In this document: piece after piece, positions 5,079-37,899 of the stretch | Numbering within the stretch: the first letter of the stretch is position 1 | How the letters are laid out: every line of letters starts with the position of its first letter | Assembly: GCA_964658305.1 (NCBI GenBank) | Contig: OZ210885.1 | Span: forward strand, 1,116,001 to 1,180,000 | Length of the DNA stretch: 64,000 nt | DNA from: Leptogorgia sarmentosa | Lineage: Eukaryota | Reading direction: 5' to 3' | Notes under the pieces: model-generated | The model's input: only the letters and a program-made list of their open reading frames with translations | Told to the model about the DNA's origin: nothing | Databases searched by the model: none | Program-made: the position numbers and the translations under genes

Positions 5079-5952
5079 GGTAGATTTCCTGTTGAAGTTA
5101 TTGCATTTTATTCCTATCTGGATGTAAACAATTTCGTGTTTAAAATAAACACAATACAACTGCTCAACCGCAATGATTCTTTGTGTATTTAGCTGATGTT
5201 TTTTTTACATTGGAACTAAATCACATCGACCAAAAGGTGATAATTGGTGATCTCAATTTCACTACAGAAACTGGACAGTCAAAAGTGGGCATATCGGGTA
5301 CCTGTCGGTTTTTTCTGACCAATGACAATTCACAAATTTAAAATTCCGCTAATTGTTTGAGATATTTGGGAGCAAGACATGGTTTTCGACTTATCGCCGC
5401 CCACAAAATATATTGAACGCAAAGATGATCAACAAAAAATATATATTTTACAAAATTGATGTCCAACAACATTTTGTCTGTTTACAGAACAAAACAAAAT
5501 CTTGAGCAACCAGCAGTTCAACATTTCTTATGACTCATTTCAATACCTCAAAATCATTTTACACTTCAACCCCGGGCACCAAGTATGGTAAGTAATTACA
5601 TGCAGAGGTCTGTTGTGCCCACTTTTTTTACTTGATGCGTGCATCTGATTGGATGACGACTAAATTCGGAAAATCTCGAAAAGAAGTTCCAGAAAAACTC
5701 CTAAAGAAAGGTTTCCTTCGGGATTTTCCGAATTTTGTCAGCCAATACCTAATATACATTCTCAACTCAAGTAGTACATCAAGTTCTTGGAGTTTAGTTG
5801 ATTTAAGTTGAGAAGATCGATAGTTGCATTCTTGGTTAGTGAATCGAAACAAGCGAGGGGTTGCAGCATGTAAGTTTTCCTAGTTTTAACAATGTTAGGT
5901 CGATTGTAACCAATGCAATGTTATCTTGACGTGACCAGACCACATCGAAATA

Positions 5953-12913: not shown

Positions 12914-15900
12914 AATTATCACTCTTTGTTTTGGGCCCACAGTTGTCACTCGATATGAAAATATTTACCTTTTATAGTCGAGAACTTCCAAGGGCCAAAT
13001 TGATTCAGTGTATTGCAGGTCTAAAAATGCCCAGGCATCGCCCTTTTTAATGGTGACACACACATCAGACATAAAAGATTGTTCTCACAGTCATATGAAC
13101 ATTAAATTTTTATTTTAACACAAATTAATACATTAATACATTAATACACATCATGAAAAATTATACCAACATTCTACATATTATCGAGCCTAGTTTCAGT
13201 ATATCTGGCTTTAAAATATTATATAGTTAAATGAAAATATCTAAGCTAATGATTACATCATCAACGTTTCTCATAATGGAGATTGGACTGGAGTACTAAA
13301 ATGGCGACAGCAAACCAAGAAGTAGAAACACATGCACGCTAATTTCTAATTTTCAGAACTGAAAAAATAATGCTCTTTCCAAGTCGTTACGTTTTGGCTA
13401 TTAATGTTGAATCGTTTTTGCAAGTATATAACATTAATTCTAAATGTTTTTGAAATCAATCAAGAAGCAATTCTAATAACTAAGTATATTTACCTACATT
13501 GGAGAGAAATATTGGAGAGAAATTTTGGAAAAAAGACACTTCGAGTTTCCTAAGGCATGAAAATTCACACAATCTGAAAGAATCAAGATAAGAGCGATAC
13601 CATCTGCTTCAACTGCTTGAAAACGCCGTTTTGAATGTCTCTTCTTTCTTCCATCCACGTAGTTTCTTTCAAGAGTAGTGGAATTAATAATCCTCGCAAA
13701 CTATATGTGGTGTCTGCCAGAAGTTTAACCATCTTGTCGAATGACATGAATACCATTATACCCGTACGTGTGGCTCAACTTTATTTGGAACGAAGTGACT
13801 GCATGGAAATGATCCATGTTTACATCGAGATTAAACTTTGTACCATGGAAGTAAAGATAGTTCTCGAACAGATATCTGGAGCGTGAGTCTGATTCGATTT
13901 CAGGTTCAATTTTCTGTAATTATCCGCATATTACAATGCTTCTGTTCGTTGAAGGATGATGTTATATACTCCATTCCTGTTGTCCGCTGACACAATCAGA
14001 TGTACACATGGAGCAGCTGTCATAACGGTTATCGACTGGAATCGATCATTGATTGTAGACATATAGGTATATATGTAGACATATAGGTATATAGGATGAT
14101 ATAATATTGTTTTTCAATCACTGGTAAAATATCCACAGAGAATGTTTCCAATACAAAGTAAGGAATGGTCATTGACATAACATCTCGCAGATGATACGAA
14201 TGCTATGTTCCATTAAAATATGTTCTGGACTTCAACTTTCATCGGTTTCGACAAAAAATTGCGCCAATCTCGCCCGTTTTCTTGTATATTATGTACAATC
14301 AACTCAGCCATTATCCTTTTGATGCCATAGTTATCATGCAACGATATCAAATGTTCGTTGGAAACTTTGGAATGAATATTAATCCATCAGGTATTTTAGT
14401 GTTATCTGGAAGGTGACTCTTTCATTTGTACTGAAGGTATCCTCTTTATTTCAAACGTGCTTTTCCGTTCTTTCTACAGTCAGAAACATTGTACAGTTTT
14501 TGCATAGATCAGTGTCTGCACTGATTTTAGCAGTTGATCCTGGATGTTCATGTTTTAATACAGTATCATATGATTTCAAGATACGCGACAACATCTCGTA
14601 ACGTTACCGTTGTTTTCATGTTCAATGCATGATGGATAGTGCTGGAATGGATTCGACGACACAGAATAGTTTACAATTTGACCAATTTGAAGCCGTTTTG
14701 CTCTTATTTGATTCAGTCAGATGTTTTCCAAAGTTCCGTTTTCGTTCTTACGTTCTTCTTACACAAATATATGTAAATATGTTCCGAATATACATTTCAG
14801 AAGTTGTAATCTAGGCATGCAATCTATACATTATGTAACTATAGTACTTTACAAATTATTAGTATCCTTTGTTTCACAATTATTTTTTCTTCCGTTTTAA
14901 TACTCCTTTTAGATAATTACGTCATTTGGCTTGGGAACCTCAACCTGTGTTATTTACTAAGCGAGGTTATCCCGTACTTGTGACGAAATTATTGAAAAGG
15001 TGTATTTCTTTATTACAGACAGTTTTTTGCTTTTGTTCTCAAATATTTTGCAATCAACATGTACAGCAGCGCAAAAGTTAGCTATTAATTCAAACTTTCC
15101 AGTATTATATAAACCGTCAGGTTTATAGCATTCAATATATTATTGTTCTCATATCAGAGACCGGTTGTATAAAAACGCAGTTAAACTTGGCTATCGTTAT
15201 TGTGAAAAAGTTTAGCCAATCAGAAACGCGTATTTTGGAGTTAACTACGCTTTAACTAGGGAACGTGTAATTAAAACGTAGTTAAGAGTTTTTTACAACT
15301 GGTGCCATGCAGTTCGTCAATCCGTCTTAAGCGTTTATCTCAGTCATTGGATTTGAATTTAATAGTTTTGAAATTAACTCGAAAGTTCCTTCCGAGTTCG
15401 AAATCCAACCGCAGAAACAATAAAGATGGCCATGAATCACATTTTGCATGGCTGTCCTTGATTTATTAAAAATGATGAAATATTTTTTTGTATCGAGAAG
15501 AACTTCAAATAAAGAATTAAATTGCAGCCTTCGGTCTCGTTTATACTATTAATTTTTGTGATAATTTCTCGTTGAAAATTAATCATGTTTAAAAATTCAT
15601 CTACCTGGTTCTCGTCAAGATCAAAGTGTTTTTTGTTGTTGTTTCAATGCTACGAAAAAACGAAACTCACTTTTGAAATTTGAGCTATTTCCGACAATTA
15701 ACCGTAAACTGCTTAACTAACAAAATTTCTTTCAGTAGGAAAATTATAAAACTTGTCTAGCAACACTTCTGGCGTGCACTTTGGAGTTCGGAACAGCAAA
15801 ATATTTTCTTTAACCAGTTACCTGACAATTAGATCATGTCCTCTTCTACATTACATGTCATACCTGAAACTAAAAAAACTGTCCAACATAATAAAGAATG

Positions 15901-18900
15901 AATGCAAAAGGGGCAAAAGCGATGCTGATTAAGTCGTGACCTGGATTGCAGCAGGAGGGAAATTTTTTTCAAAATTGTGACCGCTCCCCTGTTCAAACTC
16001 TTTTTGCTTACTTTTTTGTAGGATACATTTCCTCGGGAAATTTTTCAAAATTATGGAGATGGTGGAGTGGCTTTGGGGTGTAATTGTAACACGCATCTTG
16101 AATCATAATTTGAAGATCATCGATCATCATAACAACACATAACAAACACAAAGATAAAATGAGAACTATTACAACACTCGTGCTGTAGTCATGATTTTCA
16201 TGGGTTCCCCCTTTGCTAACGTTAGCTGCTAGATGTAATCTACTAGATGTAATATATATCCCGTACCACATCCCTAATGTGACGATCGTTTTTGTTGAAA
16301 GAACAATTACCTATTCTAGATTTCTAGTAACTTTTTAACTTCAATTGTTCTGGCATATTTATTTATTGAAATACATCAGGAAAAATGAAGCCATATTTAA
16401 CGTAATAACTATACTATTACGAATATACCCTATATTTACGATAAGTCGGTAGATGATAACTGTAAACCTGTAAAACGGGTCAATAATTGTGCTCCCATTA
16501 CTACAGTAGTTCCTGAATGTTACATGCGAGGCAAGATTACTTTAATTATCCCAAAATTTTCTGACCGGTTAAGCCCAACACAGACAATGTTTTGTTTCCG
16601 ACACACGGAAATTGGGACTGGGACATCACCTACATCTAAACACGTTAAAATTTCACCACGTCTCGCGTTGACAAAATATATCATTTGATTAGTTGAACCA
16701 CAAATTAAGTTCGCCTCATCAAAATATTTCAAGTCAGTACAGTGCCCATAAACAGAGACCCGAGCCAACATACTTGTCGACACAATGTCAAAGGTAAAGA
16801 TTTCGTCCAAATCAAAGCAGGATATTGCTAATGTATTTCCTTCGGGTGAAAACTCTGCATTTTGTATTGCTGATACTGAGGATCCTAATGCTTGGGAAAA
16901 CAAATTTGTCCAGGCATCTATCGTGTTTCCATCCTTCCACAGACAAATCCCACGATTCCCGTCCGTTAGGACATGGTAATTGATGCTGCATGCGCCCACT
17001 GAGCTCGAGTTAAACAAATAACTTTGTTTGCGAAAAGACATTTTATGTAGTATTTGTCTGGTCAAAACATTAAAAAAGACAACACGTTCTTCGGCAAATT
17101 GACACGCAATAACTTCATCCGACACTGACAGGCATTTGGTCGTGCCAACCAATTCGCCAAAGGATGAAAGCAGTTGGGTAATACCACTGTCCCAGAACTC
17201 TGGAGCAAATGGATGATGCGATCCATACAAAATTATAACACCACCTTTCACAACTACGAGTTGATGTATGTTTCTTGGTGGTAAAGAGTTTGAACATTTT
17301 CCCTGAAGTGTGAAAACAGTTAACATGTTAGTTGTTCTGTTGTTTACATAAACAAAATCGCCATCCGTAGAAATGCCCAAATCTGTTAAATAAAAGTCAT
17401 TAGGTGCCAACTCCTTTGCAAGCATCAAGACAGGCACACTAAAAACGCGCAAGACATTTGTAAAACATGAGAAGACCAAGACAGACTTATTGCCGAGTAA
17501 GATATACCTCGTTATTGCCATGCGGCAAGTAATCAGTGAAGGATCAACCGATTCTTTTCTTATTTTAGACAACAAAGACTGTCCTGGATTTTGCAAGAAA
17601 CGTTGTAATTCATCAGAAGAGTCCAAATTACCTGGAAGAGCTATACTACCCAGAGAACCCAAATCACCTGACAAAATGAGATCATGACTTATACGGCGCA
17701 AGGAGTTGTGAATACGACAGAGCCAAGAATTTTCTTCAAAAGTAGACACAATTTCGACGCGAACCTGGCAACTAACTTCCTTCCAATCAAGTTCGTAATT
17801 ATTCGATAAATCGTAAACACTCACTAAGTTTTCACTATCTGTAGTGCCCAAAAAAATACCGCTAGCTGTAAAAGACAAAGAGGATAGCGTGTTGCACGAG
17901 AGGCATCTTTGCTTAATGCCGCTAGAAATGTCCCAAACGATTAAATGACCCTCGTAATATGTAGCCATTTTGCTACCATCCGGAGAAAAACAAGAATCGG
18001 TGAACGCTGAACTGCCCTGATCACACTGAAATGGCCCTTTTGTGAAAGTTCCAGCCAAAGTTAGCACTTCGTCAAGTCTGCCGGGCAATATCAAGTCTCC
18101 ACGAGGGTGGAAAACAATGCAGTGTGGTAATGTACAATAATAAAATTCACCAAAAATAGGAAAGGTAACTTCCACTGTGTAATCTTGAATTTTCCACTCA
18201 GACATACCTGTTTCTAGCGAAAAGAGCTCAATCCCTCCCTGTACGTAACAACAGAGAACGAACTCGTGCTTAGGAGAAACATCAATACCTCTTATTTGGC
18301 CAGAAAGATTACAGCTTAATTCAAGAGCATTATTTGGTCCATCTTCCTTATTTAACCGGAAATAAAAAAGATCCTTGTAACGTGTTTCAAGCAACTGTGT
18401 TGCTTTCGAAGAAAGTGGTTCTCCCCCCTCGTTAACGACATTTTGCAAGAAGTTTTGCGGATACTGTTTCAAAAAGAATACAAAGTTTCTGATCAGAAAA
18501 CATAATTTCCCCACTACAGATTTCGTGTTGTGAGAGAAATGTTTGGAAATTTCAGGACTCATGAGACATTTAAGATTATCCCCGGCAAGATTCGCATCGA
18601 CATAAACACTTGCAAACACAACTTCCAAATCCGTAAAATAATCACATACAAAACTTTCAAATTCCCCTTTATCTTTCAATCCCTTCAGCATATGTGGTAT
18701 GCAGTATTTTATTGCATACTTGATGCCAGAAACAGCGAGACTTTCTTTACTAACACCGTTTTCTTTCACGTCATTCAACTTTTTTACACATAGATCAAAA
18801 AGAATCCGATTACCATATTGCACATCTACAGGGAAATTGTGCTTAGCGTTGTCGACAAGCCAATCTCTTACCGATTTATGAAAGAACGAAAGAGATTTGT

Positions 18901-20650
18901 CTTCATGAATCACAAGAAGTGATGAAAGAATATTAATGGCTTGTGTTGTCTTCCGTTTGGCGTCTGCAGGATTCTCAAAACCGAAAACAGTTGTAGCAAA
19001 CACCTCTGGTAGTGATTCTTTAGCAACTGCAAGAGCGCATAAGAAGGACAAAAATTTTCCCTCCGAAATTTCCAAGACTTTTAATTCCCGTTCCAATCTT
19101 TGCAAATAATTGGGGTAATGCTCCTCGATGCCTTTTGGAAAACGGCCAATTCTTTCCATTGAATACTCGCACTGATAAATCTCAGTAAGGAAAAATGCGT
19201 AAAGCATCAGACCGTCGGAAGTTTTGGCCAAGCTATCCAAAAGATCCTGCGAGATTTCTGGAATTTTTTCCCGTAGCACGAGTTTCAGATCATCCAGATT
19301 TCGTTGGTCGTCAGGTTCAATATACAAAGGGTTTAGTTTAATAAACCTACCTAGAATACTATTCACTGGCCTTGTCGTTATTACAAAACGAATATATGAA
19401 GGAAGTTTGTGCAAGTGAATTGAGATCAAATTGGCAAAGTCTTGCCTTCCTTGGTACTCGCTTTCATCAACAGCGTCCAGCACAATCATAATATGCTTTC
19501 CAGGATTCTCAACGTGGGAAAGTGGTTCCTTTAGAAGAAGAGAAAATAGCCCTTCAATATTCTGCTCATTTAAAGATTTTCCTACAATCCCGGAAAGCTT
19601 CTCGACCAGAGCTTCTTTGTACGCTGGCAAAACTTTACAGAGATGCCAAGCTAAAGACTGCAGGAAAATTTTTGGATCGTTGTAGTGAGTGTTATTCCAC
19701 TGAAAGAAATGGGATGCACCAACGTGCTCGGCAAAGCGTTTACAAATAACAGCCGCAATTATAGATTTACCCATACCAGCATTACCGGTAATGACAAATA
19801 CACGATTTTCTGAAGTTTCATCATTAAACCAGTTCGAAACCTGTTCAAATACCCATTCTCGAGTACCCTGAGTGAATTTGGAGTTATATAGATCAATCTC
19901 TCTCTGAAAATCACACCAGTTAAGGATTGTTTTTAGGATATCACATCGAGATTCCGTCTGATTCCTAACCAAGACATTCACGCCATCTTTGACCTCATCC
20001 AAAACCATCATTATTTTGTTATCACTTTCATTCCACTCTTTCAAAATGCGACTCACTTCCTCTTCCCCACATTCTTCATTTTCTAATCTGTCTATTTCCT
20101 TCTGATCTATTCCCAACCGAACTAATGGTGGACTTATTTCTGCCCAGAACTTCTTAAAATCTGCCTCACTTACAGCTGTCTTAGGAATGTGACCAAAACG
20201 TTCATTACGAAACAGCTTAATGCGAACAATGTCAGCTTCATTACTATGATCCGATACATTTGGCATTTTGTCCCATCCCGTAAGTGGTGGAGACAACCCA
20301 CAAATGTTTCGTAAAAGAACACAAAGTAAAGTGATGTCAAACTTATTAATGTCTGGTTTCTCAGGTGGGGTGGGGCATAACGTATCCAACTGTTTTTGAT
20401 TGATTATTTTGCTCCTGTTTAGGTTTAAAAGCATATAGCGATGACTGTGTAATACAACCTGTAAATCTCCTGGGAGAATTTTTCGATGAATGGCTTTCCT
20501 CAATGCCTCTGTTCCCCCATCCAAGATCAGCCTCATCAACTTCGTGCCATTGGTTGTCTCAGTTGAGCTGTCCAGCGTCGCCATGATCTCCTGCAAGATT
20601 TTTTTGTAAAGAATTGGATTGCTTGTAGATTTCGCTATGCGCGTAGCTTG
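12914..20650. repeat. Segmental duplication copy A (paralog of ~30015-37770)
   Basis: Continuous alignable sequence from aattatcactctttgtttt to gcgtagcttg at an offset of ~17.1 kb. Confidence 0.95.
16520..20584 (-). CDS. HEPN (DZIP3/hRUL138-like)-NACHT/STAND NTPase-WD40-like repeat protein, paralog A; 1354 aa from MATLD, single large exon with a splice acceptor at 20590
   Basis: Uninterrupted ORF. N-terminal NGTKLMRLILDGGTEALR...FDITLLCVLLRNICGLSPP..GWD..ADIVRIKLFRNERFGH (HEPN Rx4-6H); FTQGTREWVFEQV; Walker A GNAGMGKS (19763-19786); Walker B MIVLDAVDE; FFHKSVRDWL; propeller-type repeats (IDVSPK, CFSPDG..IVWD, EFSPEG). Confidence 0.9.
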   Translation of the reverse strand: MATLDSSTETTNGTKLMRLILDGGTEALRKAIHRKILPGDLQVVLHSHRYMLLNLNRSKIINQKQLDTLCPTPPEKPDINKFDITLLCVLLRNICGLSPPLTGWDKMPNVSDHSNEADIVRIKLFRNERFGHIPKTAVSEADFKKFWAEISPPLVRLGIDQKEIDRLENEECGEEEVSRILKEWNESDNKIMMVLDEVKDGVNVLVRNQTESRCDILKTILNWCDFQREIDLYNSKFTQGTREWVFEQVSNWFNDETSENRVFVITGNAGMGKSIIAAVICKRFAEHVGASHFFQWNNTHYNDPKIFLQSLAWHLCKVLPAYKEALVEKLSGIVGKSLNEQNIEGLFSLLLKEPLSHVENPGKHIMIVLDAVDESEYQGRQDFANLISIHLHKLPSYIRFVITTRPVNSILGRFIKLNPLYIEPDDQRNLDDLKLVLREKIPEISQDLLDSLAKTSDGLMLYAFFLTEIYQCEYSMERIGRFPKGIEEHYPNYLQRLERELKVLEISEGKFLSFLCALAVAKESLPEVFATTVFGFENPADAKRKTTQAINILSSLLVIHEDKSLSFFHKSVRDWLVDNAKHNFPVDVQYGNRILFDLCVKKLNDVKENGVSKESLAVSGIKYAIKYCIPHMLKGLKDKGEFESFVCDYFTDLEVVFASVYVDANLAGDNLKCLMSPEISKHFSHNTKSVVGKLCFLIRNFVFFLKQYPQNFLQNVVNEGGEPLSSKATQLLETRYKDLFYFRLNKEDGPNNALELSCNLSGQIRGIDVSPKHEFVLCCYVQGGIELFSLETGMSEWKIQDYTVEVTFPIFGEFYYCTLPHCIVFHPRGDLILPGRLDEVLTLAGTFTKGPFQCDQGSSAFTDSCFSPDGSKMATYYEGHLIVWDISSGIKQRCLSCNTLSSLSFTASGIFLGTTDSENLVSVYDLSNNYELDWKEVSCQVRVEIVSTFEENSWLCRIHNSLRRISHDLILSGDLGSLGSIALPGNLDSSDELQRFLQNPGQSLLSKIRKESVDPSLITCRMAITRYILLGNKSVLVFSCFTNVLRVFSVPVLMLAKELAPNDFYLTDLGISTDGDFVYVNNRTTNMLTVFTLQGKCSNSLPPRNIHQLVVVKGGVIILYGSHHPFAPEFWDSGITQLLSSFGELVGTTKCLSVSDEVIACQFAEERVVFFNVLTRQILHKMSFRKQSYLFNSSSVGACSINYHVLTDGNRGICLWKDGNTIDAWTNLFSQALGSSVSAIQNAEFSPEGNTLAISCFDLDEIFTFDIVSTSMLARVSVYGHCTDLKYFDEANLICGSTNQMIYFVNARRGEILTCLDVGDVPVPISVCRKQNIVCVGLNRSENFGIIKVILPRM

Positions 20651-22689
20651 AATTTCATGCAGGCACCGCGGGGCGTAAATATCGAATATGGCCTGCAGTG
20701 TTTCATGGAAATCAGGTCTATGAACTTCTGGACAGATTTGAATCTTAGTCAAAAACTATCAAAAACTATGAAAACTATGCAATGAATTTTGTAGTTGTGA
20801 TATAATGGTTCGTAGTTTCTGCTCGCGTTTAATTTAGCGGCGAAAAACGATTTGCCCTTCTTCGAGAGTCAAAGCCGTCAGAGTTGTAAAAGGGTAGTTG
20901 TAGGGACAAATTCTCTCCCGGAAAATATTGAAAACTAAAACCTCCGAAATGCCATGTGTCCAATCAATTACTACAGACTACAACATTTCACTGGAAGTGT
21001 TATCACTGATCCCCATCCCTCCCCCCCCCCCCCCCCACATTTACGAATTACGATCCTGAAATTCATGTGGGTCTGATCAGATCCAGCTAACAAACTAAGT
21101 TCAAGAGAAAATTTTGACTAACTCGTGAATTAAAAAGTAAATTAGCTTCAAAACATTGTTCTACTCACTATAGCTAAACGATACATATACACGTAATACT
21201 AACGTCATAACACGGAACTAATAGTTATCTCCGACGAAAGAAGTTGGTTGACTTGGTTCTAAACGTTGATTCCGTTTGTATCGCTTGGCCGTTTAGGTAT
21301 AGTGTGTAGAACATTTCCTGGTTTTTGATGTCGTCTTAAGAAACAAGCTGCAAGATTTTAATTTATTTATAAAGAAATGGTTTGATTTGTAAATCAATGT
21401 AAATTTACTTGATTATATTCTGCAAAACGTTAAGACTATCCCATTTCTTGCTGTGAATTAAACTGTGAAGTTTATTTATTCATTTATAATAGATTCATGA
21501 GCGACAATATTTCAATGTAAAATGTAGGCCAGAAGTAGACGTACACGGCGGAAAGGAATAGTCGAATATATTAGTGAAATTTTTGCTATAAATAAGTAAA
21601 GTTGTCAAGATCGAGGCAATATTGATACGGACTCATAGATTTAAGCCAACGCGATTTTTGTCGCCGCATGTACGTGTGAAACTCCTATTTTCCGGTCACA
21701 CGGTTTTCGGCAGCGGCGTCATTTCCACGCGCCACGCGAAAGTTTTTAATAAGCAACACACTTAGAATTAATATGAAAAGTATAGGAAAAACGCTGTTTC
21801 GAAGGGAAAATCAGGTTTTATTATGAACCTATGTTGCCGATGATAAAGGTTGGTCAATATTTATTGAGAATAGAGGTCAGCTGTGTATGATTTTCAATAT
21901 ACGTTCTGCTAGGCTTGACGATGGTTTTTTTTCAATATTTTTACTCAACCCAGTTTCATGCTCACACTGGTCACTGTATTTATCAGTTTATCTGCCTACA
22001 TGGTTGTATTTTTTAATAGTATTACATAATAACAAAACAGCCATCTGCCTGTGAAGAATTTTTCCTGAGCGGCATGGATTTTATTAACCTACTTAGTATT
22101 TACCAAACTGAAACTTGTAAAAGTACAACGCAAATGACTGCTTTTAAAACACTCCATAATATATAATATTTTGTGGGTTTCAACTTTTAAAATACAAGAG
22201 TTTTTAATACTGTCGCCAATTTTTTAGATGTGAATTTTCAAATGTTCGTAAAAGCGTACAGAAATTAGCGAGAAATAGGAATCGCTTCGCAACAAAACCA
22301 GAAGGAATTTCGTAAAATGGATCACATAGCTAAGTATATTTCAAGGACAGAAAATGTTTATTCGTTTACAAAATCTTAAACAACCTAACTACAATAACCT
22401 TGTTTTTTTAATTCAAATGCTTATTCCAACTAAGAAAGACAACTTTTTACAAGTGACTGAATGTCGCGATAAAAAGTCGACCGGTGAAAATCGCGTCGTG
22501 TGCGCCTGTATGTGTGTGTACTGTATCTACTACAATTACTTCATTATTAAGTTCGTTTCACGAATTACGAATTTCTTAATAATGGTCATGTATAAAGACT
22601 TTAGTTAATTCTAATAACGAAAGCCAGAGGGATAAATTCTAAGAAATATTCTGAAGACAGCGAATTGACCGCTTTATCTACTTACATTG

Positions 22690-22960
22690 TCTTATCAGCA
22701 AGACTGGACATGAATGACATTTAACACAGAGAGTTTAAGAAATATCAATGTTCAGTCATCTTATGTTGATATTTCAATAAGTGTGATTTAAATTGTCCAA
22801 TGGTATTTATTATCATCCGTTCCACTGTTGTGTGGTAGGAGACTACTGAACACTCAGGGTGTCTACTCTTAGTGACATGATTACTTGATTTAAAAGCGAT
22901 GTTTTGATCGTTTCTCAGCATTCTCAACAATGTTCAAACTCTTATTGAAGAGCTCATTCA
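22690..22960 (-). pseudogene. Possible decayed retroelement integrase (rve) fragment; duplicated at ~27010-27280
   Basis: LRNDQNIAFKS...SYHTTVERMIINTIGQFKSHLLKY loosely resembles the SDNG..F.S...YHP..NG.VER.N.T.K..L.K integrase core; weak. Confidence 0.3.
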
Positions 22961-24129
22961 GCGATGACGAAATACAGGGTGCACAGCGTGAGTAGCCTAG
23001 CTGGAATTTTATCTGGAGCCAACGATGGCTTTGTTTACATCGAATGGGAAAATGTTTTTAGGTTAAATGAATAGAAGATCATTCACCAGTTTTGCGATGT
23101 CAATAAAAGTGACATTTGTATCACGTCCTATACAGTTTTTTGTAGTATACACCTTTTTGGAAAACATGCGTATATATACGTAAACAATGCTTCCTGAAAC
23201 GGTGTATTGCAGCAATAATACTAAATAATATATTCATTAAATATGATTACGCCAGATGTATACTATCTACTTTAAATACAAATTACGCCAGATATATACT
23301 ATTAACGTTAGTGAGGTCAATAATAAAAAAAGAGAAAAAGCCATGGATTGCTCGAAGATTCACAAATGTTCCAATTAAACATCCACAACCTGATGACTTT
23401 AACTTAAAACTGTATCGATCTATACACAAAACAGGCAAATCACAAAAGAACTTTGTTAACCATTACGAATGTTATATTCTTTTGTGTCGTCAACGGTACA
23501 TTGCCGTACGCGTTTTATATCAAGGATGTCGTTAAAGAGAATTCTATAACTGGCTCATTCAATTATGTACTTAGATTGCATTTCATCTTCATACACTAAT
23601 ATAGCGACAAGACGTTACCTTTCTTCCTTTACAACACCACTACATTGGTAGACAGTTAACTTCAGGATAATCAGTGTTCAATTGATTGAAAACCTTTGTC
23701 AGTTTATGTAAGATTCAAGTTTTTGAAAATGGCCAGCTTCGAGTGAACATCTAATACGAAATCACTTCAACTGTGAACTGAAAAACTAGATTCATATACA
23801 ATGCATCTGTGAACTGAAAAGTACTTTGCATTTCAAATTAGAAAACTCGACACAAAAACATGCGTGGGATTGAAAAACGAAAACAAACCAAAACATGTAT
23901 GGTATCCATAATAATTATTAAAAAGTTATAATCAAATTGTGAGTCATAATCCTGGCCAAAAATATCGACGACACTTTGCTTCGAAACAAAATAAAGAACT
24001 CTCCCCTTTACCGCCGCTGATTAATGTTGAATGGCATGTTAAACACATTTATCACAGGCTCAACTTTGTTTTGGCGACCACAGGGGTCACGTATAGTCGG
24101 GAACTTCAAGGGGCCAAATTGATAATGCT

Positions 24130-24430
24130 TTTTACCAGGAATGGTTTTACCAGGAATGCATGGTTTTACCAGGAATGGTTTTACCAGGAATGCATGGTTT
24201 TACCAGGAATGATTTTACCAGGAATGCATGGTTTTACCAGGAATGGTTTTACCAGGAATGCATGGTTTTACCGGGAATGGTTTTACCAGGAATGCATGGT
24301 TTTACCAGGAATGGTTTCACCAGGAATGCATGGTTTTACCAGGAATGGTTTCACCAGGAATGCATGGTTTTACCAGGAATGGTTTCACCAGGAATGCATG
24401 GTTTTACTAGGAATGGTTTTAACCAGGAAG
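24130..24430. repeat. Composite minisatellite of mostly alternating 15-bp (ggttttaccaggaat) and 19-bp (gcatggttttaccaggaat) units
   Basis: Directly visible; it produces the spurious repetitive ORFs at 23939-24568. Confidence 0.95.
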
Positions 24431-25029
24431 TGTCACCCTTTATCGTTACCCACGCTGAAGAGATTGTACCAAAATTGTTCACACAGTCATTTGAACGTTA
24501 AATTGTCATTTCAATACAAATCAATATACGTCATAAAAAGTTATACCAACATTCTACATATTATCTAGCCTATAGTACAATTGAAGCCATGAGTATATCT
24601 AACTTAATGATTATATCGTCGACGTTTCTCATCATAATTGTGAAAGGAGTAGCTACTAAAATGGCAACAACAAACCAAGAGGGGGAAACACACCTTAATT
24701 TCTATTCAAATTTGCATATTTTCACAAAAAAATCATGCTCTTTCTAGCTACATTTTGGTTATAAATGTTAAATCGTTTTTGCAAGTATATAATTGCATTG
24801 GAATAAGCTTCCAAATCATAAGACCATTAATTGCATGGATTTTTACAAAGTAGTTAATAGTTTTAGACAATTTGGATTGGTTTAAATTAGAATATAAACG
24901 TTTTTAATAAATATAAGGATTTTATGAGGAAGTACGTAGCTAAATATTTTTAAAATGACATTACTAATAATCATAAAACTTTAATTTGTGTTTGTATGTT
25001 TGTGGGCGTATATACTTATATATATATTT

Positions 25030-25133
25030 AACAATTATACCATGAGCTCGAGTCGTATATGAGCTGATAGCCGACGAGGCGCAGCCGAGTTGGCTATCAG
25101 CCATATACGACGAGAGCGAATGGTATAATTGTT
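25030..25133. repeat. Imperfect palindromic hairpin element
   Basis: aacaattatacca..gtcgtatatg..ctgatagcc..gaggcgcagccgag..ggctatcag.catatacgac..tggtataattgtt. Confidence 0.8.
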
Positions 25134-25520
25134 TTATTATATAGACAAAAGGCGAACATTATATTAAACGATATTAAAATCATTCATTTGAGGGAAACGC
25201 TCAGCCATTTTCAGCCATTTTGTTTTAAGCTTACTTGAGTGAGATAATTAATTCGTCCTACTCACTATATATGAAGTAATAGCTAGTGAGTAGCTCAGCC
25301 AATCAGATTACAGAATATCTCATATATAGTGCTTGTCTATATAATAAATATATATATTATATAAGTATAATATATATATCAAAAACGATGTGGTCGTTTG
25401 AGCACTGTGGTCCCATGACTCTCTGCGCGTGTGTGGATGCGTTGATGTCTCGGTGTGCATGTACCACATGCGTCTTTGCTGAACACATTTTGATCTTCGC
25501 ATGCTTAATCTTTTCCATAT

Positions 25521-26435
25521 AAAAAATTATAGATTTTTTTATATTTGTAATTTTAGTAATTCGTTTGGCAGCTGCTGTAGCCGCAGCGACTTGAAGCTTA
25601 AAACAAACCATGCTATCCTTTTATCGTAATACAATCAGACTAGCGCTGAAAAGTGAATTTTCTTTCATATTCATCATTAAAGCAAGTCCCTTGTCGAAAG
25701 ATGGCCACATTTATAGCAGAATATATATACAAACACAGACATGTTTGTATGCACAAACTTTATTATTTACCATGCACTAGCAAACTTAGTTGCGATATCC
25801 TTTCTACCGTTTAGCGCTGAAAAGCGAATTTTCTTTCATTTTTATCATTAAAACAAGACCTTTGTTGGCAGATTCATGGCCATATTTATAGCAGAATATA
25901 TACAAACACAGAAACACACACAAACTTTATTTGTTCACGCTAGCCTTAACAAACAGATTTTCACATGAAACCAGGGACGTAGGAACGTTTTCAAAATTGG
26001 CGGGAGAGGGGGGGAGGAGGGGGCGCACCTCACGAGGCGCCAAAGCTAGAAAATTTTGGCGCGTCAGAGTCAAAAAGAGTCCAAACTGGACCTTTTTAGT
26101 TGGCTTCTTCGGGTATACAAATAAAAGATTGTTGGCTAAGGTGCGGCTTTAATAGTTTTTTTTGAAATCCAGGATTTTTTTCTCGGGGTGGGTGGGGGGG
26201 GGGGAGGTCCGCGTACCCTCCTGGTTCCTACGTCCCTGCTTGAAACGTGGCTTATAATACACAGAATATTGAACACGAAACTACACGTATTTTTTTGAGG
26301 AAGATTCAACAAATTCATCGTTTCACAACTGTTTGTAATATTTCAGTGTTTGAGGGAGTTCTCCTGAATGATTGTTTCAGTGCTTTATTTCACGGTGCTC
26401 GTGAATGATTGTTTCTCTTTTCGACATGCATAGGA
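25521..26435. repeat. Dispersed duplicate of ~45951-46551, the 3' flank of the GPCR gene
   Basis: Alignable from aaaaattatagattttt through ccagggacgtaggaacgttttc to gacatgcatagga; this copy has an internal tandem duplication. Confidence 0.85.
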
Positions 26436-26467
26436 TGTTTTAAGAGTTAACCCTTTGAAACACACTG

Positions 26468-28952
26468 CGTAATACTAACTTCATAACACGGAACTAATAT
26501 AAAGTTATCTCTGACGAAGGAATTTGGTTCTAAACGTTGATCCGGTTTGTATCGCTTAGGTATAGTGTGTTGAACATTTCCTGGTTTTTGATGTCGTTAA
26601 GAAACAAGCTGCAAGATTTTTATTTATAAAGAATCAGTTTGCTTTGTAAATCAAACGCCTCCAATGCAAATTTACTTGATTATATTCTGCAAAACTTTAC
26701 GGCTATCCCATTGCATGCTGTGCAATAGATTCATGAGCGACAATATCTGAATGTAAATGTAGGCTACAAGTAGACGAATACGGAAGGAATAGTCAAATAT
26801 TAGTGAAATTATTGCCATAAATAAACAAAGTTGTCAAGATCGAGGCTATATATTGATACGGACAACTCATAGCTTTAAGCCAGGTACACACGTTCATATG
26901 AATTTCTTAATAATGGTCATTTAAACTTTAGTTAATTCTAATAACGAAAGCCAGAGGGATAAATTCTAAGAAATATTCTGAAGACAGCGAATTGACCGCT
27001 TTATCTACTTACATTGTCTTATCAGCAAGACTGGACATGAATGACATTTAACACAGAGAGTTTAAGAAACATCAATGTTCAGTCATCTTATGTTAATATT
27101 TCAATAAGTGTGATTTAAATTGTCCAATGGTATTTATTATCATCCGTTCCACTGTTGTGTGGTGGGAGACTACTGAACACTCAGGGTGTCTACTCTTAGT
27201 GACATGATTACTTGATTTAAAAGCGATGTTTTGATCGTTTCTCAGCATTCTCAACAATGTTCAAACTCTTATTGAAGAGCTCATTCAGCGATGACGAAAT
27301 ACAGGGTGCACAGCGTGAGTAGCCTAGCTGGAATTTTATCTGGAGCCAACGATGGCTTTGTTTACATCGAACGGGAAAATGTTTTTAGGTTAAATGAATA
27401 GAAGATCATTCACCAGTTTTGCGATGTCAATAAAAGTGACATTTTGTATCACGTCCTATACAGGTTTTTGTAGTATACACCTTTTTGGAAAACATGCGTA
27501 AAAGGCAATAGATTGCTTGAAGAGTCACAAATGTTCCAAAACATCCGCAACCTGATGACTTTAACTATAAACTTAAAACTGTATCGATCTATACACAAAA
27601 CAGGCAAATCACAACATCGAATCAAAGAACTGTGTTAGCTAGTACGAATTAATGTTATATTCTTTTGTGTCGTCGAAAACATTGTCGGTACAAAAACATG
27701 TCGAGAGTTGCCTCCAAATTTGTAGTCCTCGACAAAATCACAATTGGCTGAGAGTGAGGTTTTTTAAATGTTTATATTTCGAACAACAAAATTAATATAG
27801 CTACTAAAATTATAAATTGATTCTCACTACGTATTATGTTCCCAACGGATAGCGCACGGGCTGTAGAATCTCTTATCTCACGGTTCGTTGCCACACTCTC
27901 TCACTCTAACTGTCACTCTGTCATGCAATAATTATCTAAAAATGTTTATTATCTTATCTGTCAGTTCCCGACAAAACATTGCCGTACGTGTTTTATATCA
28001 AGGAAGTTGCTAAAGAGAAAGCTTACCTTTCTTCCTTTACAACACCACTACATTGGTAGACAATTAACTTCAGGATAATCAGTGTTCAATTGATTGAAAA
28101 CCTTTGTCAGTTTATGTAAGATTCAAGTTTTTGACATTTGACAATGGCAGCTTCGAGTGAACATCTAATACGAAATAACTTCTAGCTTCAACTGTGAAAT
28201 GAAAAGTATTTTGCATTTCAAATTAGAAAACTCGACACAAAAACATGCGTGGGATTGAAAAACGAAAACAAACCAAAACATGTATAGTATCCATAATTAA
28301 AAAGTTATAGTCAAATTGTAAGTCATAATCCTGGCCAAAAATATCGACGACACTTTGCTTCGAAACAAAATAAAGAACTCTCCCGTTTACCGCCGCTGAT
28401 TAATGTTGAATGCATGGCATGTTAAACACATTTAATTATCACAGGCTCAACTTTGTTTTGGCGACCACAGGGGTCACGTATAGTCGGAAACTTCAAGAGG
28501 CCAAATTGATAATGCTTTTTACCAGGAATTGCTTGGCCTTACCAGGAATGGTTTTTACCAGGAATGGTTTTTACCAGGAAGTGTCACCCTTTATCGTTAC
28601 CCACGCTGAAGAGATTGTACCAAAATTGTTCACACAGTCATTTGAACGTTAAATTGTCATTTCAATACAAATCAATACACGTCACAAAAAATTATACCAA
28701 CATTCTACATATTATCCAGCCTAGTACAATTGAAGCCATGAGTATATCTAACTTAATGATTATAATTATCGTCGACGTTTCTCATCATAATTGTGAAAGG
28801 AGTAGCTACTAAAATGGCAACAACAAACCAAGAGGCGGAAACACACGTTAATTTCTATTCAAATTTGCATATTTTCACAAAAAAATCATGCTCTTTCTAG
28901 CTACATTTTGGCTATAAATGTTAGATCGCTTTTGCAAGTATATAATTGCATT
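26468..28952. repeat. Second segmental duplication, copy b
   Basis: Paralog of 21192-24800. Confidence 0.9.
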
Positions 28953-29569
28953 AGCTAATTCTAAAAGTTTTTGAAATCAATTAAGAAGCTATTCCACATT
29001 TGTTTTTAGGTGATATAATCATTAAAATGATAACGATCCTATGATTTTATCACTGGCCTCTTTGTTTCTTTGCCGCCATTTTAAATAAGGAATTGCCGTT
29101 GTATAACTAAGTATATTTATCTACATTGGAGAGGAATTTTGGAGCCTGAAATTTTCGCAAACTGAACGAACTAAGGTTAGAGTAATTCTAACTGCCTTCA
29201 AAGATTGAAAACGCCGTTTTGAATGTCTCTTCTTTCTTCCATCACGTAGTTTCAAAGTATATTTCACTTTCTAGTCCATTCAAGAGTATGTAGAATTAAT
29301 AATCCTTCGCAAGCTATTTATGGTGTCTGCCAGAAGTTCAACCATCTTGTCGAATGACATGAATACCATTATACCCGTACGTGTGGGCGATTGTAGCCGG
29401 TTTTTCGCTATTCTCAGAACGATAACGGAGCAATGAACAGCAGGGCTGGTAAGCCAATAATTTGTGAAAGTATTTCAATATATTCAGGCTTATGTATAAA
29501 AGCAAGGAAAAAGAAGGCAATTTTGTTATCTATGATCCAGAAGTGCAAGAATAGCGATTTGTACAGTGG

Positions 29570-29705
29570 ATATTTGGTAACTCAAGGATCTATTCTTGGG
29601 CCAGTATTAATTTAACGTATACATCAACGACTTGCCCAATGTTCCAAGAGTCCTCTTTGGAATCTTATGTGCATGATTGGAAAATCTATCTGGCATTTTC
29701 AATTC
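29570..29705 (+). pseudogene. Non-LTR retrotransposon (L2/CR1-type) reverse transcriptase fragment, frameshifted
   Basis: Reads VTQGSILGPVL/FNVYINDLPNVPRV/SLESYVHDWKIYLAF across two frameshifts (QGSxLGP and degenerate YxDD). Confidence 0.8.
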
Positions 29706-30014
29706 GGTTAATTCAACCAAGAGCTCTCGTTTGTACTTTGAGCACACTCCATTTGGCAATACAGTAACCTCATTCGCATCGGACGGGACATTTTTTATCT
29801 TTCACCCACAATAAAAAGCTGCAGTGCCACTAAATTGTCCGAGGACTGGGAACTTATAATCCCGGTATAGTCACAATCCTAGTAGTTAAAACATCGAGGA
29901 CATGACAAATGAGCTTCGGACCAAAATTAAGACCACACTCCTCTTCTCCCCGCCGATCAATGTTGAAGGCCTAGGGTTTTCCCATAACATGCTAAACACA
30001 TTTTGGCACTGGTC

Positions 30015-33000
30015 AATTATCACTCTTTGTTTTTGGCCCACAGTTGTCACTCGATATGAAAATTTTACCTTTTATAGTCGAGAACTTCCAAGGGCCAAAT
30101 TGATTCAGTGTATTGCAGGTCTAAAACTGCCCAGGCATCGCCCTTTTTAATGGTGACACACACAGAAGACATAAAAGATTGTTCTCACAGTCATATGAAG
30201 ATTAGATTTTTATTTTAACACAATTTAATACACATCATGAAAAATTATACCAACATTCTACATATTATCGAGCCTAGTTTCAGTATATCTGGCTTTAAAA
30301 TATTATATAGTTCAATGAAAATATCTAAGCTAATGATTACATCATCAACGTTTCTCATAATGGAGATTGGACTGGAGTACTAAAATGGCGACAGCAAACC
30401 AAGAAGTAGAAACACATGCACGCTAATTTCTCATTTTTAGAACTGAAAACATAATGCTCTTTCCAAGTCGTTACGTTTTGGCTATTAATATATTTTCGCA
30501 AGTATATAACATTAATTCTGAAAGTTTATGAAATCAATCAAGAAGCAATTCATTTTGTTTTTCGCTAATAAAACGATAAAAAACATCTATTATGATTTTA
30601 TCATGGCCTCTTTGCCGCCATTTTAGATAAAGAATTGCTATTGTATAACTAAGTAGCTATATTTACCTAAATTGGAGAGAAATATTGGAGAGAAATTTTG
30701 GAAAAAAGACACTTCGAGTTTCCTATTGCATGAAAATTCACACAATCTGAAAGAATCAAGATAAGAGCGATACCATCTGCTTCAACTGCGTCAACACGCC
30801 GTGTTGAATGTCTCTTCTTTCTTCCATCACGTAGTTTCAAAGTTTATTTCACTTTCCAGTTCATTCAAGAGTAGTGGAATTAATAATCCTCGCAAACTAT
30901 ATGTGGTGTCTGACAGAAGTTCGACCATCTCATCGAATGACATGAATACCATTATGGGTATAATGGAACGAATTCGAAGTGACTGCATGGAAATGTTCCA
31001 TGTTTACATCGAGATTAAACTTTGTACCATGGAAGTAGATATGGTTCTCGCACAGATATCTAGAGCGTGAGTTTGAGTCGATCAGTTTCAGTTTCAATTT
31101 TCTGTAATTATGCACATATTACAATGCTTCCGTTGGTAGAAGGGTGATATTATATATCCCATTTCTGTTGTCCGCTGACACAATCAGATGTACACATGGA
31201 GCAGCTGTCATAACGGTTATCGAATGGAATCGATCATTGATTGCAGACATATAGGTATATATGTAGACATATAGATATATAGGATGATATAATATTGTTT
31301 TTCAATCACTGGTAAAATATCCACAGAGAATGTTTCCAATACAAAGTAAGGAATGGTCACTTCTTCAACTTTCTTCTGTTTCGACAAAAAATTGCTCCAA
31401 TCTCGCACTTTTTCTTGTATATTATGTACAATCAACCCAGCCATTATCCTTTTGATGCCATAGTTATCATGTAACGATATCAAATGTTCGTTAGAATGGA
31501 TATTAATCCATCAGGTATTTTAGTCTTATCTGGAAGGTGACTCTTTCATTTGTACAAGATGTCCTCTTTATTTCAAACGCGCTTTTCCGCTCTTTCTACA
31601 GTTAGAAACGTTGTACAGTTTTTGCACAGATCAGTGTCTGCACTGATTTTAGCAGTTGATCCTGGATGTTCATGTTTTGATACAGTATTATATGATTTAA
31701 GATACGCGACAACATCTCGTAACGTTAACGTTGTTTTCTAGTTCATGTTCAATGCATATTCGTACGGAAGTTCTTGCATAATGATAGTTCTGAAATTGAT
31801 TCGACGACACAGAATAGTTCACAATTTGACCAATTTGAAGCCGTTTTGCTCTTATTTGATTCAGTCAGATGTTTTGCAAAGTTTCGTTTTCGTTCTTACG
31901 TTCTTCGTGCACAAATATATGTAAATATGTTCCGAATATACATTTCAGAAGTTGTAAACTAGGCATGCAATCTATACATTATGTAACTAGTAATTTACAA
32001 ATTATTAGTATCGTTTGTTTCACAATTATTTTTTCTTCCGTTTTAATACTCCTTTTAGATAATTACGTCATTTGGCTTGGGAACCTCAACCTGTGTTATT
32101 TACTAAGCGAGGTTATCCCGTACTTGTGACGTAATTATTGAAAAGGTGTATTTCATTATTATAGACAGTTTTTGTTTTTGTTCTCAAATATTTTGCAATC
32201 AACACGTACAACAGGGCAAAAGTTATTAATTCAAACTTTCTGATATTATATAAACCGTCAGGTTTATAGCATTCAATATATTATATAGTTCTCATATCAG
32301 AGACCGGTTGTATAAAAACGCACTTGAGCTTGGCTATCGTTATTGTGAAAAAGTTTGACCAATCAGAAACACGTATTTTGGAGTTAACTACGTTTTAACT
32401 AGGAAACGGGTAATTAAAACGTAGTTAAGAGTTTTATACAACTGGTGCCATGCACAGTTCGTCAATCCGTTTTTAGCGTGTATCTCAGTCATTGGAGTTG
32501 AATTTAGTTCTGTAATTAGCTCGAAAGTTCCTTCCGAGTTTCATTAAAGATGATAAAAGATTTCTTTTGTATCGAGAAGAACTTCAAATAAAGAATTAAA
32601 TTGCAGCCTTCCTCGCTGATACTTTATTAATTTTTGTGTGATAATTTCTCGTTGAAAATCATGTTTAAAAATTCATCTAGCTGGTTCTCGTCAAGATCAA
32701 AATGTTTTTTGTTGTTGTTTCAATGCTACGAATAAACGAAACTCACTTCAAATATTTTTTTTTGCAATTTGAGCTATTTTCGAGAATTAACCGTGGCCAC
32801 GTGTCAGTTTGGTAAACTGCTTAACTAACAAAACTTATTTCAGTAGGAAAATTATAAAACTTGTCTAAACATTTTTGTGGAGCAACGCTTCTGACGTGCA
32901 CTTCGGAGTTCGGAACAGCAAAATATTTTCTTTAACCAGTTACCTGACAATTAGATCACGTCCCACTTCTACAAGTACATGTCATACCTGAAACTAAAAA

Positions 33001-36000
33001 AAACTGTCCAACATAATAAAGAATGAATGCAAAAGGAGCAAAAGCGATGCTGATTAAGTCGTGACCTGGATTGCAGCAGGAGGGAAAATTTTTTCAAAAT
33101 TGTGACCGCTCCCCTGCATGTTCAAACTCTTTTTGCTTACTTTTTTGTAGGATACATTTCCTTGGGAAATTTTTCAGAAATTCTTTGGGGTGTAATTGTA
33201 ACACGCATCTTGAATCATAATTTGACGATCATCGATCATCATAACAACACATAACAAACACAAAGATAAGATGACAAGACATGAGAACTATAAGTACAAC
33301 ACTCGTGCTGTAGTCATGATTTTCATGGGTCCCCCCTCTGCCAACATTAGCTACTAGATGTAATATATATCCCGTACCACATCCCTAATGTGACGATCGT
33401 TTTTGTTGAAAGAACAATACCTATTCTAGATTTCTACTAATTTTTTTAACTTCAATTGTTCTGGCATATTTATTTATTGAAATACATCAGGAAAGTGAAG
33501 CCATATTTTAACGTAATAACTATACTATTACGAATATACCCTATATTTACGATAGGTCGGTAGATAATAACTGTAAACCTGTAAAACGGGTCAATAATAC
33601 TGCTCCCATTACGACAGTAGTTCCTGAATGTTACATGCGAGGCAGGATAACTTTAACCATCTCAAAATTTTCTGAAAGGTTAAGCCCAACACAGATAATG
33701 TTTTGTTTCTGGCACACGGAAATTGGGTTTGGTAGATCACCAACATCTAAACATGTTAAAATTTCGCCACGTCTCGCGTTAACAAAATATATCATCTGAT
33801 TCCTTGAGCCACAAATCAAGTTCGCCTCATCAAAATATTTCAACTCAGTACAGTCCCCATAAACAGAGACCCGAGCCAACATACTTGTCGACACAACGTC
33901 AAAGATAAAGATTTCGTCAAATTCAGTGCTGGATATTGCTAATGTATTTCCTTCGGGAGAAAACTCTACACTGTCTATTGGAGATGCGGTTCTTAATGCT
34001 ATAGCTTGGGAAAACAAATTCGTCCAGGCATCTATCGTGTTTCCATCCTTCCACAGACAAATCTCACGATTCCCGTACGTTAGTACATGGTAATTGATGC
34101 TGCATGCGTACACAAAGAACTTACGGTACGCGTGTTCGTCAAAAGACATTTCTTGTAGTATTTGTTTGGTCAAAACATTAAAAAAGACAACACGTTCTTC
34201 GTTAAATACACACGCAATAACTTCATCCGACACTGAGAAGCATTTGGTCGTGCCAACCAATTCGTCAAAACATGAAAGCCGTTGGGTAATACCACTGTCC
34301 CAAAACTCTGGAGTAGATGACTGATGCGATCGATACAAAATTACAACACCACCTTTAACAACTACGAGTTCATGTATGTTTCTTTGTTGTAAAGAGTTTG
34401 AACATTTTCCCTGAAGTGTGAAAACAGTTAACATGTTGGTTGTTGTGTTGTTTACATAAACAAAATCGCCATCCGTAGATATTCCCAAAGATGTGAAATA
34501 ACAGTCATTACATGCCAGTTCCTTTGCGTTCGCATGCATCAAGCCAGGCACACTAAAAACGCGCAAGACATTTGTTGCACATGAGAAGACCAAGATAGAT
34601 TTATTGCCGAGTAAGATGTACCTGGTTGTTGATTCGTGGTAAGACAACCCTGAATGTTGAAACGATTCTTTTCTTATTTTAGACAACAAAGACTGTCCTG
34701 GATTTTGCAAGAAACGTTGAAATTCAGCAGAAGAGTCCAAATTACCTGGCAGAGCTTTACTATACAGAGAACCCAAATCATCTGACAAAATGAGATCATG
34801 ACTTATACGGCACAAGGAGTTGTCAATACGACAAAGCCAAGAATTTGTTTCAAAAGTGCACACTATTTCAACCCGAGACTGGCAACTAACTTGCTTCCAA
34901 TGAAGTTCGTAATTATTCGATACATCGTAAACACTCACTAAGTTTTCACTATCTGTAGTGCCCAAAAAATTACCGCTAGCTGTAAAAGACAAAGAGGATA
35001 GCGTGTTGCAGGAGAGGTATCTTTGCTTAATGCCGCTAGAAATGTCCCAAACGATTAAATGACCCTCGTAATATGTAGCCATTTTGCTACCATCCGGAGA
35101 AAAACAAGAATCGGTGAACGCAGAACTGCCCTGATCACACTGAAATGGCCCTTTTGTGAAAGTTCCAGCCAAAATTAGCACTTCGTCAAGTCTGCCGGGC
35201 AATATCAAGTGTCCACGAGGGTGGAAAACAATGCAGTGTGGTAACGTACAATAATTACCTTTCTCAACAGGAAAAGGAAAGGTAACTTCCACTGTGTAAT
35301 CTTGAATTTTCCACTCAGACATACCTGTTTCTAGCGAAAAGAGCTCAATACCTCCCTCTGAGTAACAACAGACAACGAACTCGTGCTTAGGAGAAACATC
35401 AATACCTCTTATTAAGCCAGAAAGATTACAGCTTAATTCAAGAGCATTATTTGGTTCATCTTCCTTATTTAACCGGAAATAAATAAGATCCTTGTAACGT
35501 GTTTCAAGCAACTGTGTTGCTTTCGAAGAAAGTGGTTCTCCCCCCTCGTTAACGACATTTTGCAAAAAGGTTTGGGGATACTGTTTCAAAAAGAATACAT
35601 ACTTTTTGATCAGAAAACATAATTTCCCCACTATAGATTTCGTATTGTCAGAGAAATATTTGGAAATCTCAGGACTCATGAGACATTTAAGATTATCCAC
35701 GGTAAGATTCACATCGACATAAACACTTGCAAACACAACTTCCAAATTCGTAAAATAATCACATACAAAACTTTCAAATTCCCCTTTATCTTTCAATCCT
35801 TTCAGCATATGTGGTATGCAGTATTTTATTGCATACTTGACGCCAGAAACAGCGAGACTTTCTTTACTAACACCGTTTTCCTTCACGTCATTCAACTTTT
35901 CTACACATAGATCAAAAAGATTCCGATGACCATTTTGCACATCTACAGCGAAATTGTGCTCAGCGTTGTCGACAAGCCAATCTCTTACCGATTTATGAAA

Positions 36001-37770: not shown

Positions 37771-37899
37771 ACAGCTATTTCATGTTAGTCTGATCAGATT
37801 GATCTAATGTTCAAGGGAAAAAAAGAAAAACTTTTTCGCATTAAGTAAATACTTACGAAACTCGTAAAATACCAATTATTATGACAATTATATATGTGA

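Follow-up and report, generated by a model that had tools for sequence, protein, structure and literature searches.

HEPN is the commonest partner of NACHT in octocorals apart from leucine-rich repeats (LRRs), with 83 cases in Dendronephthya gigantea (PMC8260672), and corals carry many N-terminal HEPN domains and show tandem duplication (PMC10236652). TRADD-N domains of the DEDD2 clade have expanded in cnidarians to 17-168 copies, and are fused in varied orders to HEPN, to propellers and to NTPases of the STAND class (signal transduction ATPases with numerous domains) (Kaur et al., PMC8195603). As far as the available portions of these three reports go, expansions of HEPN-NACHT in anthozoans, and the fusion of TRADD-N with HEPN and STAND domains in marine invertebrates, are already known. 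HEPN-NACHT genes are among the largest expansions of genes resembling NOD-like receptors (NLRs) in corals, and the gene-level cause of their domain shuffling is unexplained. We analyzed a window of 64,000 nucleotides from Leptogorgia sarmentosa (contig OZ210885.1, positions 1,116,001 to 1,180,000), to which all coordinates below refer, and in it two tandem HEPN-NACHT-WD40 genes on the minus strand, paralogs A and B, which probably encode immune receptors and have the same splice acceptor in front of one big exon. B is preceded by two TRADD-N-like exons, here called its head. We put at roughly two in three (about 0.68) the probability that A is a stand-alone, headless receptor that has a local non-coding 5′ exon and starts at its own ATG at 20584.

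A and B share the order HEPN, NACHT, winged helix-turn-helix (wHTH) and WD40 with the anthozoan DZIP3/hRUL138-like HEPN-NACHT proteins (PF18738 plus NACHT). The parts of the two coral accounts available to us (PMC8260672, PMC10236652) describe neither 5′ exon structure, nor an optional TRADD-N head, nor capture of a leader by a partial duplicate. In the systems of Kaur et al. TRADD-N usually follows a death effector domain, whereas here two tandem TRADD-N-like exons, with no death-fold domain, precede HEPN; the main text of that paper, in the portion available, contains neither 'exon' nor 'splic' (PMC8195603). Human NLRP3 is alternatively spliced by skipping of LRR exons (PMC6642158, seen in part), and the locus is like it in that exon-level modularity lets splicing alter the domain content of an NLR, but unlike it in that the part left out would be the N-terminal adaptor, with translation starting anew within the last exon. 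In the literature covered, supplements being outside the scope, we found no account of splicing or skipping of a TRADD-N head, or of a self-starting last exon, in HEPN-NACHT genes. Constant 5′ exons joined to variable last exons occur in Drosophila mod(mdg4) and lola, and sensor/helper pairs occur among plant NLRs. The locus differs from the former in having only two last exons and in that no coding head common to A and B was observed on A, and from the latter in that no motif loss marks A or B as sensor or helper.

The big exon of A (16520-20590, minus strand) encodes 1354 amino acids from ATG 20584 to the stop, with no internal stop, and that of B (33631-37710, minus strand) has the same architecture and 88% amino acid identity to it. 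In a Pfam search both carried, in order, an N-terminal HEPN_DZIP3 domain (159 and 164 bits against a curated cut-off of 27), a NACHT-type NTPase (NPHP3_N: 84-86 bits, cut-off 24.8; NACHT: 30-31 bits, cut-off 26.7), a TANC1-like wHTH and C-terminal WD40 propellers, for which several models matched at E values of 1e-8 to 1e-12, mostly under their own family cut-offs. Walker A (GNAGMGKS), Walker B (MIVLDAVDE) and the HEPN motif RNERFGH are identical between the copies. The last has the Rx4-6H form of the HEPN RNase motif (PMC3710099, seen in part) with a polar residue after the arginine, and the HEPN domain of A is a predicted RNase effector. AATAAA signals stand at 16367 (A) and 33478 (B) on the minus strand.

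The exon starts at 20590 (A) and 37710 (B) both read ...aattctttacaaaaaaatcttgcag|GAGATCATGGCG on the minus strand, and the 25 nucleotides preceding the exon (20591-20615 in A) and its first 95 nucleotides are identical between A and B. B splices in frame through TRADD-N-like exon T2 (40317-40729, with its own acceptor at 40729 and ATG at 40714), TRADD-N-like exon T1 (38578-39066), a 79-nucleotide linker exon (38316-38394) that converts phase 2 to phase 0, and the big exon, all on the minus strand; this model (40714-40317, 39066-38578, 38394-38316, 37710-33631; phases 2, 2 and 0) gives 1681 amino acids and one terminal stop, and phase 0 at the big-exon acceptor is therefore correct. The original prediction, of a common phase-0 acceptor followed by GAG ATC ATG in both paralogs, thus holds. 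A's own ATG (20582-20584, minus strand) lies 6 nucleotides into the exon in the context ATCATGG, with A at -3 and G at +4.

A derives from B's last exon by a partial duplication that did not include the TRADD-N-like exons. Self-alignment delimits a copied block from 12914 to ~21154 (A) and from 30015 to ~37861 (B), which comprises ~150 nucleotides of intron, the big exon and 3.6 kb of 3′ flank (12914-16519 in A, minus strand, duplicating B's 30015-33630); A and B have their acceptor in common because it lies inside this block. Close similarity had been said to decay shortly upstream of the acceptor, and it does end at 20659/37784, but weaker homology resumes at 21062-21154 (minus strand) against B's intron at 37779-37861 (none of 300 shuffles reached its score). 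The apparent end at 20659 arose because an insertion of ~400 bp (20660-21060), flanked by an 11-bp imperfect direct repeat and absent from B, later entered A's intron; the homology beyond it therefore places the duplication breakpoint ~150 nucleotides upstream of B's acceptor, approximately at the end of the residual match. The tandem duplication is recent (dS, the synonymous divergence, is 0.09), and on present evidence A by itself is a young paralog of an ordinary kind. Two further acceptor-like copies (21348-21399 and 26609-26651, minus strand; 0 of 300 shuffles each) have no HEPN-like sequence after them that homology could find, and may be what is left of an older array member.

A is also intact and under purifying selection. 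Its ratio of nonsynonymous to synonymous divergence from B (dN/dS) is 0.67 overall (Fisher P = 0.005) and rises from 0.19-0.23 in HEPN and NACHT to 0.74-0.9 beyond, the first 410 codons hold 16 synonymous and 16 nonsynonymous changes (P = 0.0002), and both copies stayed free of stops in none of 5000 neutral simulations. Amino acid identity between A and B is 97% in HEPN and NACHT and 79% over the last 354 codons, the WD40 halves being the most divergent; the nucleotide difference is 13% in the last third of the exon.

Read contigs from four (X1, X4, X5 and X6) of the six runs that contain the stretch were mapped over 16200-25000; X4, X5 and X6 are three samples of one study. X1 covers everything, with an even depth in the first intron bin, and is DNA-like. 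In X4-X6 exon A is covered and depth is zero in the intron bin 20610-20903, and we treated these three runs as RNA because of the exon cover, the zero intron bin and the splice-like breaks. A-specific contigs occur in all three: X4 records 10, 11, 12 and 15 show no other letter over 72 sites diagnostic between A and B, and A-type letters prevail in X5 record 18 (0 of 18 other) and X6 record 27 (1 of 26 other). That A might be untranscribed, which would have told against the original prediction, does not agree with these contigs from apparently RNA-derived runs.

The local 5′ exon is given by a joint in X4 (20589-23618, CT..AC, hence GT-AG on the minus strand; one contig, depth 5.25) that connects a non-coding exon, e′, to 20590. 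Exon e′ (23619-23770, minus strand; acceptor ttttcagttcacag, donor AAG|gtaacg) has stops in all three frames. Its donor was chosen from sequence ahead of the read mapping, and the X4 joint then matched it; cover upstream of the joint implies 154 nucleotides, against 152 for e′. The exon has a twin, e (28027-28191, minus strand; donor AAG|gtaagc), recognized by alignment, and 23619 and 28027 are the only AG|GTRA sites in 20591-30000. Since e′ (or e) lies downstream of B, the X4 joint can serve A alone on the window's layout. These twin exons (23770-23619 and 28191-28027) and the donor at 43270 of a leader exon, L, had previously been overlooked. Exon e′ is carried by block U′ (21192-24799), a tandem duplicate of block U (26468-29386) interrupted by a high-copy repeat at ~21650-22560 (X1 depth up to ~9900); U carries e and, at 29082, a YY1-like AAAATGGCGGC motif, and is a candidate promoter region. 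U and U′ showed no homology to B's upstream region, and e′, L and the acceptor-like copies at 21348 and 26609 none to the 5′ parts of nine related contigs. A candidate exon at 21347-21169 was set aside for now, as no joint was seen.

The relatives of A and B begin where A is proposed to begin. In a survey of the best 120 of 828 related proteins, 113 were anchored and 7 truncated; in none of the 113 is HEPN preceded by a stretch longer than 60 residues, 111 carry a Met located 13-23 residues ahead of the anchor, two begin at the anchor, and RNERFGH is exact in 43. Conservation of the Met (111 of 111 validly anchored) is partly circular, most relatives being called as open reading frames (ORFs). 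The closest named relatives are Paramuricea clavata proteins, of which two (CAB3987998.1 and CAB4004259.1), with 52-55% identity over the full length, start at the homologous Met, and LQ-(E/V)IM, the translation of the same acceptor, stands in three of the five relatives that read further upstream. An acceptor just before the conserved Met thus looks family-wide, and its retention in A is therefore to be expected. Ten close relative loci came from one scan of 23, nine of them full; eight of the nine (L002-L009) begin within 181 nucleotides of a contig end and are probably transcript-like, and in seven of these eight (six distinct genes) an in-frame stop precedes the match by 5-22 codons. In a quick tree of 38 rows (A, B, 7 of the 10 close loci and 29 of the 120 proteins), A, B and the related locus L001 fall in one clade (Shimodaira-Hasegawa-like approximate likelihood ratio test 99) and the headless contigs outside it. 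The headless form would then be the ground state of the family, with the TRADD-N-like head added in a subfamily, kept by B and lost again by A.

Within this family two loci nearly repeat two others (L002 and L003, 99.6%; L007 and L004, 99.1%), and the frames of L002 and L007 end at nucleotides 738 and 708, just past HEPN. They are truncating alleles or assembly errors, and their predicted products would be HEPN-only.

Several observations weigh against a stand-alone A with a local 5′ exon. The run type of X1-X6 is unrecorded, and RNA status is judged from coverage and joints. The local joint comes from a single contig of a single run, carries the flag 'between: not known', and has a short side of 94 nucleotides, inside the stretch common to A and B; e′ is uncovered in the X5 and X6 contigs, which does not count as absence. 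Since e′ has an acceptor of its own, a further upstream exon must be missing, possibly L, and e′ contains short upstream ATGs, all of whose frames close ahead of the main ATG. Headless database relatives say little on spliced heads because they are mostly ORF-called. Beyond codon 410 the synonymous excess is nonsignificant (P = 0.11). As to B, no headed isoform was seen among the contigs mapped on 16200-25000, and T1 and T2 have dN/dS of 0.87-1.07, yet both frames stayed open in just 46 of 5000 neutral simulations.

The readings weighed here are not mutually exclusive, and the one that survives best beside the stand-alone A is a promoter shared by A and B with alternative last exons, L being joined to A by a 22.7-kb splice. 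X5 and X6 have loose ends at exactly 20591, of 98 and 255+ letters, whose 30 printed letters align to 43275-43304 with 25 identical letters followed by a 4-nucleotide gap (best of 500 shuffles, 15). They end at a perfect donor at 43270 (TTG|gtaagt), upstream of T2, where L ends (its 3′ part lies at 43270-43340, minus strand); L is therefore joined directly to a big exon, leaving out T2, T1 and the linker. That this big exon is A's is suggested by X5 record 24, in which the L-type end is joined to 395 ungapped nucleotides (20197-20591) of A type with a single other letter, over a stretch in which 10 sites and a 3-nucleotide indel distinguish A from B, and by the A letter standing alone at 20495 in both X5 and X6, the two runs in which e′ is uncovered. 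However, the contigs collapse bubbles and give no phasing across the shared 95 nucleotides, X1 contigs being themselves mosaics of A and B, and no long splice would be needed if the B position held an A-like allele or if the haplotype were a hybrid with one copy. X5 and X6 represent other haplotypes, because their sequence is of B type at 19882-19895 and 18517-18582, includes letters absent from both A and B, and has an L that lacks 4 nucleotides of the window's. A splice from L to A would moreover have to pass over T2, T1, the linker, a closer identical acceptor and B's polyadenylation signal. We regard it as possible but unlikely. More doubtful is a general form of it, in which one promoter at L (43270) drives a splicing switchboard with adaptor exons in or out and two last exons 17 kb apart; if it were true, new last-exon duplicates would plug in as sensors and need neither promoter nor head of their own.

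Other features of these contigs were recorded. X6 record 28 has 46 other letters in 1244 nucleotides, and X5 and X6 contigs mix A, B and third-type letters over 16200-20590, which suggests gene conversion or high allelic diversity, part of which bubble collapse can mimic. At ~20050-20230 a contig in X4-X6 exceeds its neighbours 2-10-fold in depth and has letters at 20096 and 20180 that occur in neither copy; a third, more expressed HEPN paralog elsewhere is the likely source. A loose end at 16240 in X4, X5 and X6 has 2 mismatches to B's 33321 and 4 to A's flank, which has a 14-nucleotide insertion; the X6 loose ends at 17744 and 24847 could be placed nowhere in the window, the best alignment having 10 mismatches in 30. 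The 4 bases by which the window's L exceeds the X5/X6 form (43277-43280, minus strand) make an out-of-frame ATG in a weak context, whose frame would run 21 codons and overlap the main ATG on the direct splice to a big exon, and would end after 5 codons on the splice to T2. This ATG might dampen the headless isoform in an allele-specific way.

It had also been proposed that A and B form a specialized sensor/helper pair. They are adjacent and in the same orientation, with a conserved N-terminal half and a divergent WD40 half. This is nevertheless improbable, as GNAGMGKS, MIVLDAVDE and RNERFGH are unchanged in both and HEPN and NACHT retain 97% identity, headless members are common in the family, B itself likely has a headless isoform, and the pair is a recent tandem (dS 0.09). 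The option that contained this proposal accordingly survives in its other half, a headless protein from ATG 20584, which the X4 joint, the stops in e′ and the conserved Met favor.

The TRADD-N-like fusion in this subfamily is real. L001, an intron-less related contig, has a T1-like domain in one frame with HEPN-NACHT-WD40, and its similarity to T1 (48% identity) ends exactly at the 38578 donor and is followed by a 55-nucleotide linker with the same phases. T1 and T2 are tandem copies of one exon (73% at the nucleotide level). T1 begins with IAES, having ATA (39057-39059 region) where 11 of 14 relatives begin with Met, MA(E/G/N), and without a Met T1 would depend on T2's ATG. Their assignment comes from Atlas similarity, 0.93 for T2 to TRADD-like_N clusters (216 features, recognition 2500) and 0.92 for T1 to PF20694-bearing clusters (207 features, recognition 2247, just below 2300), PF20694 being on 14-58% of members in the matched clusters. 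Pfam profiles PF20694 and PF09034 matched neither T1, T2 nor any of 16 aligned members. A fold model of T1/T2 (predicted local distance difference test, pLDDT, 69; predicted template modelling score 0.56) formed no strands, a single-sequence fold had pLDDT 44, Foldseek gave no match at E ≤ 0.001, and a sequence profile against PDB gave one chance match. 'TRADD-N-like' is thus a good lead, with membership in TRADD-N unproven. None of 1684 candidates passed as a longer protein holding T1, in a weak search. An exon-like stretch at 39700 was set aside for its in-frame stop.

That these exons might splice from donor 38316 to A, giving one adaptor head on two sensor bodies, was the first option of the original prediction. 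Both acceptors are identical with phase 0 on both sides, the WD40 halves differ most (79% over the last 354 codons), and the fusion exists in L001. Against this, no joint or loose end listed at 20591 in X4, X5 or X6 matches 38316, although a further 13 loose ends lay beyond the listing, contigs drop rare forms, the mapping spanned 16200-25000 and the result does not amount to absence, and both 5′ ends that were seen (e′ and L) bypass the TRADD-N-like exons. We found no support for this option and consider it very improbable. No head of A's own was recovered either: the earlier failure to find a TRADD-N-like exon in 20650-30000 was confirmed by tblastn with both exons and of 168 proteins, which found none outside 38.5-40.8 kb, and by a hidden Markov model of 16 relatives run on 3877 six-frame ORFs of the window and loci, which matched the two known exons and L001 only.

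Finally, A might be an orphan exon in decay, or B's other haplotype duplicated by the assembly. For this reading one could cite dN/dS near 0.8-0.9 beyond codon 410 and the A/B mosaic alleles of X5 and X6, but it is largely refuted by the open frame of 1354 codons, purifying selection in HEPN and NACHT, A-specific spliced RNA-like contigs with a joint to A's own upstream exon, and the 13% nucleotide difference in the last third.

With A as a stand-alone receptor, its transcript would run from e′ (donor 23619) to 20590 and be translated from ATG 20584. The big exon may be self-starting, in that any upstream exon, phase-0 coding or non-coding, would yield a product because the acceptor lies a few bases before the conserved Met; B's head is therefore likely optional. 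B would then have a headed isoform (L, T2, T1, linker, big exon), in frame by its sequence and shown in the relative L001 alone, and a headless one from L directly to the big exon, a type of joint seen in X5 and X6. By analogy with STAND proteins and NLRs, the WD40 propellers may sense, the NTPase oligomerize, and the HEPN domains dimerize and cut RNA, and a TRADD-N-like head would add an adaptor surface. The locus suggests a simple route by which a one-exon body gains a head, skips it, or revives alone behind a non-coding exon, and headed and headless versions of one receptor would offer a natural test of what TRADD-N-like domains do in invertebrates.

Around these genes the window contains a single-exon rhodopsin-family G protein-coupled receptor (46660-47658), a ShK-domain gene with a Thr-rich stretch (50300-52039), part of which is presumably discoidin-like, and a cupin-like exon (4626-5204, minus strand). 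One non-coding element occurs in four copies (13075-13773, 24471-24792, 28622-29386 and 30175-30955), which fall into two pairs with a similarity of 93% inside each pair and ~70% from one pair to the other; two of the copies carry AAAATGGCGGC. Dispersed repeats link 25518-26443 with 45947-46559 and 37873-38039 with 44721-44885, and a tandem array with a 34-bp period lies at 24130-24430.

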